From NCBI RefSeq assembly GCF_051903065.1, contig NZ_CP178438.1: 64,000 bases of DNA. One strand, given 5' to 3'. The notes beneath the pieces are model-generated. The model was not told where the DNA came from, did no database searches, and saw only the letters and a list, made by a program, of their open reading frames with translations. The stretch's first letter is position 1, and every line of letters begins with the position of its first letter. Positions 53,031-58,173 of this stretch are shown here, one piece after another. The stretch is from Escherichia coli. Lineage in GTDB: Bacteria; Pseudomonadota; Gammaproteobacteria; Enterobacterales; Enterobacteriaceae. Made by a program: the position numbers and the translations under genes.

Positions 53031-53315
53031 ATGCCTTTAGCAGCCAAACTCACCGACAAAGGCACCCAGCACGACGGTTATTACGAGACCGTCATCACCG
53101 CCGGGTCATCCACCGTTTTTATCGATGGTCTCCCCGCAGCCCGCCAGGGAGATCCGCTGACGCCGCATGCTAAACCGAAGCATCCCCCTCATCCCCGTAA
53201 AATCGCCAGAGGCTCGTCAACCGTCTTTATTGACGGCCTGCCCGCCGCCAGAACCGGTGATGCCATCGACTGTGGTGGTGTGGTCATTGGTGGCGGTACG
53301 GTAAATATAGGCTGA
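53031..53315 (+). CDS. PAAR-repeat protein (T6SS spike tip)
   Basis: 94-aa ORF with strong RBS AGGAGG; two DGLPAAR motifs. Confidence 0.8.
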   Translation: MPLAAKLTDKGTQHDGYYETVITAGSSTVFIDGLPAARQGDPLTPHAKPKHPPHPRKIARGSSTVFIDGLPAARTGDAIDCGGVVIGGGTVNIG

Positions 53316-53333
53316 TATGTCTGAGAGGTATTT

Positions 53334-55481
53334 ATGTCCTTAAAAGGTCTGCGCTTTACGCTGGAGATTGACGGCCAGGAGCCGGACACCTTTGCAGTGG
53401 TGAATTTCAGGTTAATCCAGAACCAGTCTTATCCGTTTGTGATGAGTGTGGATGTTGCCAGCGACTCTTTTATGCAGACGGCGGAGATGCTGCTGGAGAA
53501 GAAGGCGACGCTGACTATCTGGCAGGGCGTCATCCCGCTGCGTTATGTCACAGGCGTGGTGGCGGGCTTTGGCATGCAGGAGAATAACGGCTGGCAGATG
53601 CGTTATCACCTGCGTATTGAGCCGCCGTTATGGCGGTGCGGGCTGCGGCAGAACTTCCGTATCTTCCAGCAGCAGGATATCCGGACGATATCGGCCACGT
53701 TACTGAATGAGAACGGCGTCACGGAGTGGACGCCGCTGTTTTATGAAGACCATCCGGCGCGGGAGTTCTGTGTCCAGTACGGAGAGAGCGACCTGGCGTT
53801 TCTGGCGCGGCTGTGGGCGGAGGAGGGGATTTTCTTCTTTGAGCGGTTTGCGGCGGACAGCCCGGAGCAGAAGCTGACGCTGTGCGACGATGTGGCGGGG
53901 CTGTCACAGGCGGGAGAGCTTCCGTTTAACCCGGACACATCGGCAGGAGCGGAGACGGAGTGTCTCAGTATGTTCCGTTATGAGGCGCATGTCCGCCCGT
54001 CGTCGGTGCAGAGTCAGGATTACACGTTTAAGGTGCCGGACTGGCCGGGGATATACGAACAGCAGGGTGAGAGGCTGAACGGACAGCACGCGCAGTACGA
54101 GATATTTGATTATCCGGGAAGGTTCAAGGATGAGCAGCACGGCAAGGATTTCACGCTGTATCAGATGGACAGCCTGCGCAGTGATGCGGAAAAGGCCACA
54201 GGGCAGAGTAATTCACCGAAGCTGTGGCCGGGAACGCGGTTTACGCTGACGGGGCATCCGCAGAAGATGCTGAACCGTGAATGGCAGGTGGTACAGAGCA
54301 TACTGTCAGGAAGCCAGCCGCAGGCGTTGCACGGCAGCCAGGGGAGAGGAACCACACTGGGCAATCAGTTAGAGGTGATACCGGCAGACCGGACGTGGCG
54401 TCCACGGCTGCAAAGCAAACCGAAGGTGGACGGGCCACAGAGCGCCATTGTCACCGGGCCTGCGGGAGAGGAAATCTTCTGCGATGAACATGGCCGGGTA
54501 CGGGTGAAGTTCCACTGGGACCGTTATCACGGGATGACGGAGGCGAGTTCATGCTGGGTGCGTGTATCGCAGGCGTGGGCGGGGCCGGGGTTCGGCAATC
54601 TGGCGATACCGCGTGTGGGTCAGGAGGTGATAGTGGACTTTCTGAACGGCGACCCGGACCAGCCCATTGTGACGGGACGCACATACCATGAAGACAACCG
54701 TTCGCCGGGCGACCTGCCGGGAACGAAGACACAAATGACCATCCGGTCGAAGACCTATAAAGGAAGCGGATTTAACGAACTGCGCTTCGAGGACGCCACC
54801 AGTAATGAGCAGGTGTATATCCATGCGCAGAAGAACATGGATACGGAGGTGCTCAACGACCGGACAACGGATGTGAAACATGACCATACGGAAACCATCG
54901 GTAACGACCAGAAGATAACGGTGGTGAAGGGTCAGACGGTTCAGGTCGGTACAAAAAAAGAGGGGGGCCACGACCAGAGTATCACGGTGGAGAACGACCG
55001 GCGTATCACGGTACGTAATGACCAGACTCTGAAGGTGACGAATGACCGGACGGTGAGCGTGAGTCACGATGACGGTCTGTACGTCAGAAACGACCGTAAA
55101 GTGACGGTGGAAGGGAAGCAGGAGCATAAGACGACGGGGAACCATATCAGTCTGGTGGAGGGGAAACACAGCCTGGTGGTGAAGGGGGACCTGGCGGAGA
55201 AGGTGAGTGGCGCGCTGGGGATAAAAGTGGACGGGGATATCGTGCTGGAGAGCAGCAGCCGGATAAGCCTGAAGGTGGGTGGCTCGTTTATCGTCATTCA
55301 GCCGGGCGGAGTGGATATAGTGGGGCCGAAGATAAATCTTAATGGTGGGGGGAGTCCGGGGACACCGGTACCGACACTGCAACCCACTGTCCTGAACACT
55401 TTAGTCACTAATGATACGGATAGTAATACTGATGATGATATCGGTAATGATGAGACCAGAGTGAAGTTCATGTTCTCGTAG
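53334..55481 (+). CDS. vgrG: VgrG (T6SS spike, gp27/gp5-like) with short C-terminal tail
   Basis: 715-aa ORF; VgrG-like N-terminus (RYHLRIEPPLWRCGLRQNFRIFQQQD), gp5-like beta-helix repeats (ITVENDRRITVRNDQTLKVTNDRTVSV). Confidence 0.9.
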   Translation: MSLKGLRFTLEIDGQEPDTFAVVNFRLIQNQSYPFVMSVDVASDSFMQTAEMLLEKKATLTIWQGVIPLRYVTGVVAGFGMQENNGWQMRYHLRIEPPLWRCGLRQNFRIFQQQDIRTISATLLNENGVTEWTPLFYEDHPAREFCVQYGESDLAFLARLWAEEGIFFFERFAADSPEQKLTLCDDVAGLSQAGELPFNPDTSAGAETECLSMFRYEAHVRPSSVQSQDYTFKVPDWPGIYEQQGERLNGQHAQYEIFDYPGRFKDEQHGKDFTLYQMDSLRSDAEKATGQSNSPKLWPGTRFTLTGHPQKMLNREWQVVQSILSGSQPQALHGSQGRGTTLGNQLEVIPADRTWRPRLQSKPKVDGPQSAIVTGPAGEEIFCDEHGRVRVKFHWDRYHGMTEASSCWVRVSQAWAGPGFGNLAIPRVGQEVIVDFLNGDPDQPIVTGRTYHEDNRSPGDLPGTKTQMTIRSKTYKGSGFNELRFEDATSNEQVYIHAQKNMDTEVLNDRTTDVKHDHTETIGNDQKITVVKGQTVQVGTKKEGGHDQSITVENDRRITVRNDQTLKVTNDRTVSVSHDDGLYVRNDRKVTVEGKQEHKTTGNHISLVEGKHSLVVKGDLAEKVSGALGIKVDGDIVLESSSRISLKVGGSFIVIQPGGVDIVGPKINLNGGGSPGTPVPTLQPTVLNTLVTNDTDSNTDDDIGNDETRVKFMFS

Positions 55482-57713: not shown

Positions 57714-57717
57714 AACA

Positions 57718-58173
57718 ATGAATTTTAAAAAAACAATAATCATTTCGGTAGGTTTGATATTTATTTCATTCTCTTTTGTGGCAAAGTGCTCTCAACTCAA
57801 AAATTTGAATAATTACTCAGTGATGCTTTGTGGAAAAGTGTCAAATAATATCCTGGATGATATTGGTGGTTATAAAGAAAGAGATAAAAAATCCGAAATG
57901 GTAGATTTACTTATATTAATTAGTAATGACGAGCCTAACGGTGTTTCTGAGACCAAAGTGATTTCTAATGGTAAAATATATTTTAAGGGGGAAAGTACGA
58001 TGAACTTGGATGCCTCATTCATTATGACAATAAATGGTGGAGTTCATACTGACACTGTCACTTATATATCAAAGAAGAATAAAATTATCGGGGGCTACTT
58101 TTATAATAATGAGAGTAAAACTGATAAGCTTAAGGAAGTATATATCTCAAACACAGGAACTGTATATCGGTAA
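57718..58173 (+). CDS. Putative cognate immunity protein (secreted or lipoprotein)
   Basis: 151-aa ORF 4 bp after the effector stop; signal peptide MNFKKTIIISVGLIFISFSFVAKC; low GC; stop codon lies inside the IS1 terminal repeat. Confidence 0.55.
   Translation: MNFKKTIIISVGLIFISFSFVAKCSQLKNLNNYSVMLCGKVSNNILDDIGGYKERDKKSEMVDLLILISNDEPNGVSETKVISNGKIYFKGESTMNLDASFIMTINGGVHTDTVTYISKKNKIIGGYFYNNESKTDKLKEVYISNTGTVYR

Follow-up and report, generated by a model that had tools for sequence, protein, structure and literature searches.

The Escherichia coli genome section analyzed here (64,000 nucleotides of contig NZ_CP178438.1, referred to as the window) harbors, between yncG and pptA, four co-oriented genes encoding a PAAR protein, a VgrG protein, an effector and a small protein, located at positions 53031-58173 according to an open reading frame (ORF) check. 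These genes are interpreted as an orphan or auxiliary cargo cassette of a type VI secretion system (T6SS), comprising an effector composed of a WHIX secretion domain and a toxin domain of the glycoside hydrolase family 19 (GH19) type as well as its cognate immunity protein, and probably idle in this strain (probability of this reading approximately 0.8). A first-pass annotation of the window, made from the letters alone, had proposed an orphan T6SS cargo island depending on a T6SS encoded elsewhere, which is supported by a core cluster at the aspV site of the matching genome (NZ_AP045789.1). Its suggestion of an uncharacterised system did not hold, since the WHIX class was already described in 2025 with chitinase-like C-termini as its commonest type (PMC12135965); the island belongs to this class and is no new kind of system. 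Beyond that first reading, the WHIX domain was recognized, the immunity gene was found to be truncated by IS1, and a tssM nonsense mutation was identified in the host lineage.

WHIX denotes a bipartite T6SS secretion domain that owes its name to WHxxxH, a motif conserved in the first of its two regions (Fridman et al. 2025, PLoS Biol, PMC12135965). Subclass I members combine an N-terminal WHIX domain with one C-terminal toxic domain, the chitinase-like type being the commonest with 2,242 unique proteins, whereas subclass II (“double-blade”) effectors possess an additional toxic domain, longer than 99 amino acids, ahead of WHIX as well as a second immunity gene upstream (PMC12135965). The effector encoded in the window reads S-W41-H-G-G-V-H46-L and thus contains the WHxxxH motif, with W41, H42 and H46 being invariant in all 31 homologues compared. 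In the founding effector of Vibrio alginolyticus (WP_005373349.1), W41-H-S-G-I-H46 is located at the same position. Residues 1-452 of this protein, whose WHIX regions comprise amino acids 31-126 and 271-476, were recovered from the authors’ model file for comparison. BLASTP aligned effector residues 33-115 to residues 33-120 of WP_005373349.1 (E=4e-8, about 27% identity), and single-sequence hhalign matched the same first region with a probability of 96%. Both pairwise BLAST and single-sequence hhalign reached region 1 only, and full-length homology required a profile on the Vibrio side: the profile of 31 effector homologues aligned to that of 17 Vibrio WHIX effectors with 99.7% probability (E=8.3e-27) over 538 columns, spanning residues 28-694 and 31-714, respectively.

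Based on the WHxxxH motif and the near full-length profile homology, the effector is assigned to subclass I of the WHIX effectors, with a WHIX loading domain at approximately residues 28-470 followed by a GH19-type lysozyme domain at approximately residues 485-693. WHIX region 1 begins at about residue 28, leaving no N-terminal extension of more than 99 amino acids. Moreover, the effector gene is preceded by the spike genes for PAAR and VgrG, and the matching genome carries T6SS core genes. The effector lacks a signal peptide, and its AlphaFold2 (AF2) model reached a predicted local distance difference test (pLDDT) value of 75. Since subclass I effectors possess a single C-terminal toxic domain, one immunity gene is expected.

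Among 5.8 billion proteins searched, 916 were relatives of the effector; the closest comprise about 700 amino acids and originate from Enterobacterales and Chromobacterium. Annotations of these closest relatives vary between “M23 family metallopeptidase”, “predicted chitinase” and the erroneous “hydroxyethylthiazole kinase”. A position directly after a vgrG gene or fragment is common to the homologues in Buttiauxella, Enterobacter, Yersinia, Chromobacterium, Salmonella and E. coli, each of which is followed by a small ORF without a Pfam match. Effector homologues are located inside or beside T6SS clusters, near tssB/C, clpV or hcp.

The C-terminal third of the effector was assigned to the GH19 type by comparison with solved structures. 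Phmmer searches against the Protein Data Bank (PDB) retrieved GH19-type endolysins (9ms7, E=6.6e-9), and Foldseek superimposed the C-terminus on the same endolysin with a TM score of 0.72. Catalytic-type residues Glu520 and Glu529 are invariant in 31/31 homologues, and the motif GRGTIHLTGRENY (GRGxxxLTGxxNY type) is conserved. Some sources call fragments of the effector “glycoside hydrolase family 19 protein”, and the founding WHIX member WP_005373349.1 is named a GH19 protein by NCBI. The C-terminal domain is therefore supported as the toxin and represents a predicted cell-wall glycosidase. Right after the GRGxxxLTGxxNY motif, an in-frame tandem duplication adds an extra N-Y-R (residues 573-575), as deduced from the alignment with the effector of strain 33E; it is present in three of the 19 effector-bearing genomes, namely 23CRST027, 23CRST031 and ECNB21-M121 (match length of 1819 instead of 1810 nucleotides).

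Two hydrolase domains had been predicted for the effector in the first-pass annotation. The C-terminal GH19-type part of this claim stood, whereas the N-terminal “M23” part corresponds to WHIX region 1, in which the first His of the HxH motif, a canonical catalytic residue, is replaced. The Pfam check proposed there yielded for the effector a weak Peptidase_M23 match only (residues 44-157, E=3.3e-4) and none to Glyco_hydro_19. Foldseek comparison of the AF2 model with PDB structures nevertheless placed the N-terminus next to lysostaphin, LytM, Csd2, ShyA and the non-catalytic LytM domains of DipM and EnvC, and hhalign aligned residues 26-163 to the LytM domain of the active E. coli M23 peptidase MepM (probability 90%, E=1.4e-6). 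Phmmer searches with the N-terminal 144 residues against PDB sequences gave nothing relevant, so that the fold relationship emerged via Foldseek and hhalign only; the LytM/M23 fold of WHIX itself is not mentioned in the text of Fridman et al. (PMC12135965).

In the MepM alignment, the HxxxD motif (HRGVD) corresponds to H42-x3-H46, the Asp ligand being replaced by a His that is invariant in 31/31 homologues. The catalytic His of “YMHL” aligns to H114, and the HxH motif to A145-x-H147. Across all 31 homologues, H42, H46, H114 and H147 are invariant, and position 145 is occupied by Ala, Glu or Gly, never by His; in the founding Vibrio effector, the stretch equivalent to HxH reads N-R-V-H, with Arg in place of the first His. 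The N-terminal part thus features the LytM/M23 fold without an HxxxD or HxH motif of active enzymes. Judged by this alignment, the WHIX domain is predicted to hold a catalytically degenerate LytM/M23-like fold.

A bifunctional toxin, composed of an active M23 endopeptidase and a GH19 domain with one immunity protein for both activities, as proposed for Acinetobacter Tse4-type effectors, would also account for the Pfam match, the fold and the alignment to active MepM. The four invariant histidines imply that a metal site may persist, and WHIX domains occur almost exclusively in peptidoglycan-targeting effectors, with an active role after delivery left possible by the authors (PMC12135965). The replaced HxH and HxxxD ligands argue against it, as does the identity of the region with WHIX region 1 of a subclass I protein lacking an extra N-terminal extension. 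Moreover, two-blade WHIX effectors are accompanied by a second immunity gene on their upstream side, a place that is taken by vgrG in the window. Expressed alone, the WHIX domain of Awe1 from Aeromonas jandaei was non-toxic in the E. coli periplasm and sufficient for T6SS secretion, a post-delivery role again being left possible (PMC12135965). An active second hydrolase is therefore considered quite unlikely, and a WHIX domain serving in loading is preferred.

Both spike proteins scored far above the curated NCBIfam cut-offs, in agreement with the first-pass annotation. PAAR matched NF033420 with E=5.5e-47 and 157.8 bits (cut-off 124), and VgrG matched TIGR03361 with E=5.6e-179 and 596 bits (cut-off 186) as well as TIGR01646 with 417 bits (cut-off 122). 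The PAAR sequence (WP_001127493.1) also occurs, identically, in islands with other cargo. VgrG residues 1-687 represent a conserved core whose identity to the frameshifted VgrG from the aspV T6SS cluster of the host amounts to 92-96%, followed by divergent sequence. Since VgrG and PAAR have phage homologues (gp27/gp5 and spike-tip proteins) and the solved structures nearest to the toxin domain are phage endolysins, an origin from a defective prophage or tailocin, as a module of tail spike and endolysin unrelated to T6SS, was considered. The scores of the T6SS-specific models, the identity of VgrG to one from a T6SS cluster, the T6SS contexts of the effector homologues and the lack of other phage genes within the island effectively refute such an origin.

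At the same site, strain PM06121 encodes an identical PAAR and shares the VgrG core. At the DNA level, PM06121 matches the window up to 55384 (about codon 684); the VgrG tail that it encodes past this point is longer and different and is followed by an M35 peptidase. This break at the start of the VgrG tail indicates that the exchangeable cassette begins there. VgrG proteins adjoining WHIX effectors at six enterobacterial loci, including the window, share the ending [KRY][FW]-hydrophobic-F-S: RVKFMFS in the window, PVKFFFS in an E. coli paralogue, PLKFLFS in Salmonella, PVRFVFS in Buttiauxella, ASYFLFS in E. cloacae and KRWLFS in Y. pseudotuberculosis. An ending of the [FW]xFS type was not seen in VgrG proteins with M35 or DUF4123 cargo. 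In A. jandaei VgrG4, the last 14 residues (...KVSFSGR) are needed for WHIX binding (PMC12135965). Based on this requirement and the conserved tail motif, we infer by analogy that the KFMFS tail may serve as the docking peptide for the WHIX domain. As a separate observation, the founding WHIX effector of V. alginolyticus is preceded by about 1.6 kb without a called gene (locus 2384-4000), in which a long ORF ends with SFVTFDDNFSD.

A further, tentative proposal is that WHIX represents an exapted M23/LytM peptidase whose groove may clamp the VgrG tail (...K-F-x-F-S-COOH) and later peptidoglycan stems, thereby aiding the targeting of the GH19 domain. It is derived from the fold similarity, the four invariant histidines and the conserved tail motif. 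In this proposal, the groove keeps H42, H46, H114 and H147, possibly with a bound metal. If true, it would explain the near-restriction of WHIX to peptidoglycan-targeting effectors.

The gene following the effector starts four nucleotides after the effector stop codon and encodes a protein with a hydrophobic, signal-like N-terminus. Its role as immunity gene, suggested in the first-pass annotation, is likely, based on its position, the four-nucleotide spacing and the retention of orphan copies. The gene is not complete as had been assumed: a gene for 167 amino acids has been cut at codon 151. The exact 151-residue sequence clusters with common members of 167 residues, and in the alignment identity extends through residue 150, after which homologues continue with HINIESVSNDKCLDKFK whereas the window encodes Arg followed by a stop. 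The IS1 end GGTAATGACTCC begins at 58169, inside codon 151, and the match to the uninterrupted locus extends no further than 58168. IS1 takes away the last 17 residues of the immunity protein. Assignment of the shorter length to an alternative start of the 167-residue homologues was rejected, since the difference is C-terminal, at the IS1 junction. A lipoprotein reading was likewise rejected; “FVAKC” has Lys at position -1, which is not a canonical lipobox.

Inspection of both ends of the IS1 copy disclosed no target-site duplication at its flanks, pointing to a deletion or recombination event mediated by IS1 and not to simple insertion. By blastn, the window lacks 853 bp that are present in strain 33E, where the locus is uninterrupted (33E locus 7261-8113); this segment holds the immunity gene's 3' end, the spacer and ISAs1 sequence from the 5' part. 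A stretch of 80 bp that separates IS1 from the ISAs1 fragment (58937-59016) is without counterpart in the uninterrupted reference locus.

The immunity protein lacks a Pfam domain, and neither this protein nor the effector matched NCBIfam. Its family is narrow, comprising members from E. coli, Pseudocitrobacter and Salmonella as well as a Buttiauxella relative with 26-28% identity, all encoded beside related toxins. Proteins encoded beside more distant WHIX-GH19 homologues are unrelated to it, as is usual among polymorphic toxins. Cys38 is invariant, and a C-terminal Cys161 is present in every full-length homologue including that of Buttiauxella. This residue is lost in the window, which suggests that a periplasmic disulfide may have been lost along with it.

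Based on these results, the following mode of action is proposed for the intact cassette. PAAR would cap the VgrG trimer, the conserved core of which would fit the E. coli aspV-type T6SS. The WHIX domain would bind the last approximately 30 residues of VgrG, an acidic linker ending in KFMFS, and the spike would thereby carry the effector along, as deduced from the experiments on A. jandaei Awe1 and VgrG4 together with the conserved tail motif. In the periplasm of the attacked cell, the GH19-type domain would cleave the glycan strands of peptidoglycan, as judged from the conserved Glu pair and the similarity to GH19 endolysins. The downstream signal-peptide protein would act as cognate periplasmic immunity protein, considering its position, its spacing and its retention in effector-less strains.

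The record NZ_AP045789.1 (strain 23CRST027, human faeces, Ecuador) is essentially identical to the window. Positions 1-25000 are 100% identical to this record and to the near-clone 23CRST031. In NZ_AP045789.1, the Prokaryotic Genome Annotation Pipeline (PGAP) likewise called these four genes and, behind them, IS1A and an ISAs1 gene truncated at its N-terminus. At the aspV (tRNA-Asp) site of this genome (543086-574441), a T6SS cluster was identified, encoding tssA, B, C, E, F, G, H, J and K, dotU (tssL), tagH, vasI, two hcp copies and a tssM pseudogene. The cargo of this cluster comprises an M35 peptidase module and a Tla1/Tli1a/Tle1-like module. Its tssM gene contains TAG at codon 694 of 1175 (Q694*, CAG to TAG), its own vgrG is frameshifted, and IS903B is located between tssB and hcp. 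The Q694* mutation was found only in 23CRST027 and 23CRST031. The closest relative, ECNB21-M121, features CAG at codon 694 and an intact tssM, and its cassette is likewise intact, with a 167-residue immunity gene and without IS1. Both the immunity truncation and the tssM stop are absent from this sister strain and are therefore recent and lineage-specific.

Considering the clipped immunity protein, the tssM nonsense mutation and the frameshifted aspV vgrG, the cassette is probably not operating in this strain. Since the effector lacks a signal peptide, a producer whose T6SS does not work should not be harmed by it, and loss of immunity would be tolerable once firing stops. For other E. coli lineages, mutation of tssM has been described as a route of T6SS decay (PMC12981562). 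The opposite situation, in which the 151-residue protein protects and another intact T6SS, or read-through or suppression of tssM Q694*, still fires the cassette, is considered unlikely. The ORFs for PAAR, VgrG and the effector are intact, 90% of the immunity protein remains, and further T6SS clusters are possible beyond the two sites scanned. The identity of the orphan VgrG core to the aspV VgrG nevertheless points to the aspV cluster as the cognate machine, in which tssM stops ahead of its C-terminal part. The pheU island of 23CRST027, in which a T6SS was likewise looked for, contains none. Moreover, the lost segment of the immunity protein holds the Cys conserved even in the distant Buttiauxella homologue.

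Several points weigh against an idle WHIX-GH19 cassette as described here. The effector-immunity pair is known in this case from sequences and models alone. Four invariant histidines at the LytM-like site leave room for a catalytic or metal-dependent role. Pfam and NCBIfam gave no GH19 match at default thresholds. In the accessible part of the supplementary lists of Fridman et al. (PMC12135965), the effector accession WP_226156858 was not found; the lists contain other WHIX effectors from E. coli whose C-terminus is chitinase-like. Docking of the VgrG tail was modeled by AF2 as a fusion of WHIX (residues 1-480), a 30-residue Gly/Ser linker and the tail, using a shallow, partly paired alignment; the tail reached pLDDT values of only 22-29, and the fusion a mean of 59.5, without confident docking. 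Inspection for T6SS genes covered the aspV and pheU sites of the 4.9-Mb genome, so that a second system may be encoded elsewhere. Finally, 7.1 kb around the island are 100.0% identical to NZ_AP045789.1 but show two single-base length differences, because of which the host assignment refers to a lineage rather than to the exact isolate.

In K-12, the yncG-pptA interval comprises yncH, an rhsE pseudogene, ydcD, yncI' and ydcC. The rhsE remnant and ydcD, which the first-pass annotation had named for this site, were thus verified, and the island occupies the rhsE site. Homology to K-12 stops at window position 52489 and restarts at 59001 (blastn). The other structural claims made there were also borne out, namely the four co-oriented genes at 53031-58173, an AT-rich noncoding stretch ahead of the island (guanine-cytosine (GC) content of 0.32-0.36 across 52250-52999), and termination at IS1 and an H-rpt transposase fragment, the latter representing the distal edge. 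Likewise, neither Rhs genes nor T6SS core genes are annotated anywhere within the 64-kb window. The yncH gene is missing from the leader of the island, where tblastn with YncH gave no significant match. The coordinates of all features are summarized in the table below.

Features of the WHIX-GH19 cassette and its surroundings (window positions unless another locus is named)
Feature	Position	Strand	Basis
AT-rich intergenic leader	52492-53030		GC 0.32-0.36; K-12 homology ends at 52489
PAAR spike-tip protein, 94 amino acids, two DGLPAAR motifs	53031-53315	+	NF033420
VgrG spike protein, 715 amino acids	53334-55481	+	TIGR03361
Cargo-specific C-terminal tail of VgrG, approximately residues 684-715, acidic linker ending DETRVKFMFS	55383-55481	+	Homology break
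WHIX-class (subclass I) T6SS effector, 693 amino acids from ATG	55632-57713	+	hhalign, BLASTP, AF2
LytM/M23-like subdomain of WHIX, residues 26-163	55707-56120	+	Pfam, hhalign, Foldseek
GH19-type (chitinase-like) muramidase toxin domain, predicted	57084-57710	+	phmmer, Foldseek, conserved Glu
9-bp in-frame tandem duplication (NYR)	57348-57356	+	Alignment with 33E effector
Putative immunity gene, 151-residue ORF (150 native codons, IS1-derived Arg, stop)	57718-58173	+	Homologue alignment
IS1A copy, 768 bp	58169-58936	-	Both end sequences; PGAP IS1A-family transposase
ISAs1/H-rpt (ydcC) transposase fragment without N-terminus	58991-59453	+	PGAP; blastn against K-12 and 33E
Repeat copy, K-12 locus (94%)	14698-14827		
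Repeat copy, strain 33E locus	7575-7737		
Repeat copy, PM06121 locus	6251-6380		

The effector gene is rare and was detected in 19 of 5426 complete E. coli genomes, as compared with 33 genomes containing the immunity gene at a coverage of at least 80%. A 163-bp immunity-gene remnant was found in about 119 further genomes including ATCC 25922, amounting to 152 E. coli genomes altogether. In islands of the M35 type (PM06121, NZ_CM129866.1 locus 5214-5955), the final 234 bp of the WHIX-GH19 effector gene are preserved together with a full-length orphan immunity gene of 95% identity. Such orphan genes are consistent with a cassette displacement in which protection would be retained. Accordingly, the exchangeable unit at the yncG-ydcC hotspot appears to reach from the last approximately 30 vgrG codons through the immunity gene, displaced immunity genes persisting as orphans. 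In addition, a repeat of about 130-160 bp, located upstream of the PAAR gene at 52730-52890, recurs just upstream of ydcC/ISAs1 in other strains. This repeat may represent an H-rpt/ISAs1 end or a module-boundary repeat serving cassette exchange. In strain 33E (NZ_CM147847.1), a second PAAR-vgrG module follows in tandem directly after the ISAs1 closing the first cassette (locus 8919-10071).

Outside the island, ydbD is a frameshifted pseudogene in the matching record (window 771-3076). An IS200/IS605 element at 28770-30492 contains a tnpA gene with an internal stop, adjoining an intact insQ/TnpB RNA-guided endonuclease gene. Rfam identified the small RNA RydC (17069-17132) and the sok antitoxin RNA (17692-17843) beside hokB, both being ordinary K-12-like features.

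These results bear on genome annotation, since proteins named “M23 family metallopeptidase” by PGAP and encoded beside vgrG are likely to be systematically mis-annotated WHIX-class T6SS effectors whose toxic part is the GH19 domain. Furthermore, 23CRST027 and 23CRST031, with tssM Q694* and clipped immunity, and ECNB21-M121, with both loci intact, offer a natural pair for studying the decay of a T6SS weapon.

Among known systems, the founding V. alginolyticus effector WP_005373349.1 resembles the E. coli effector in the WHxxxH motif at residues 41-46, the full-length profile homology, the combination of a WHIX N-terminus with a chitinase-like/GH19 C-terminus, and a gene position between vgrG, immediately upstream, and an immunity gene whose product has a signal peptide. 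It differs in an insertion of about 140 residues inside its LytM-like part and in an immunity protein unrelated to the E. coli one. The LytM-like part of the E. coli effector is almost uninterrupted, which explains its “M23” labelling by Pfam and PGAP. The A. jandaei Awe1/AwiU/AwiD system with VgrG4 would share WHIX loading on a short VgrG tail (KVSFSGR there, RVKFMFS here), and its peptidoglycan-targeting C-terminal toxin and downstream immunity gene have counterparts in the window. As a subclass II effector, however, Awe1 features a genuine M23-like toxic domain (amino acids 1-147) before WHIX and a second immunity gene upstream, neither of which is present in E. coli.

With GH19-type phage endolysins (9ms7 PWe2, 9eoi, 4ok7 SPN1S-type), the toxin domain shares the fold, the Glu-x8-Glu pair and the GRGxxxLTGxxNY motif. 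Unlike these, it is fused to a T6SS loading domain, presumably delivered by a spike and accompanied by a dedicated immunity protein, and it contains the NYR insertion. The non-catalytic LytM domains of EnvC, NlpD and DipM and the active M23 peptidases MepM, LytM and lysostaphin feature the same beta-rich fold as WHIX. Compared with the active M23 peptidases, E. coli WHIX lacks the first His of HxH and carries His in place of the Asp zinc ligand; EnvC and NlpD, in turn, have lost the metal ligands altogether, unlike WHIX with its four invariant histidines. The island finally resembles other orphan vgrG/Rhs islands at the E. coli yncG-ydcC site, such as the K-12 rhsE remnant and the M35 variant, in its location and its H-rpt/ISAs1 distal end. 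PAAR, in identical form, and the VgrG core also occur in the M35-cargo island, which differs in the VgrG tail, the effector and the immunity gene.

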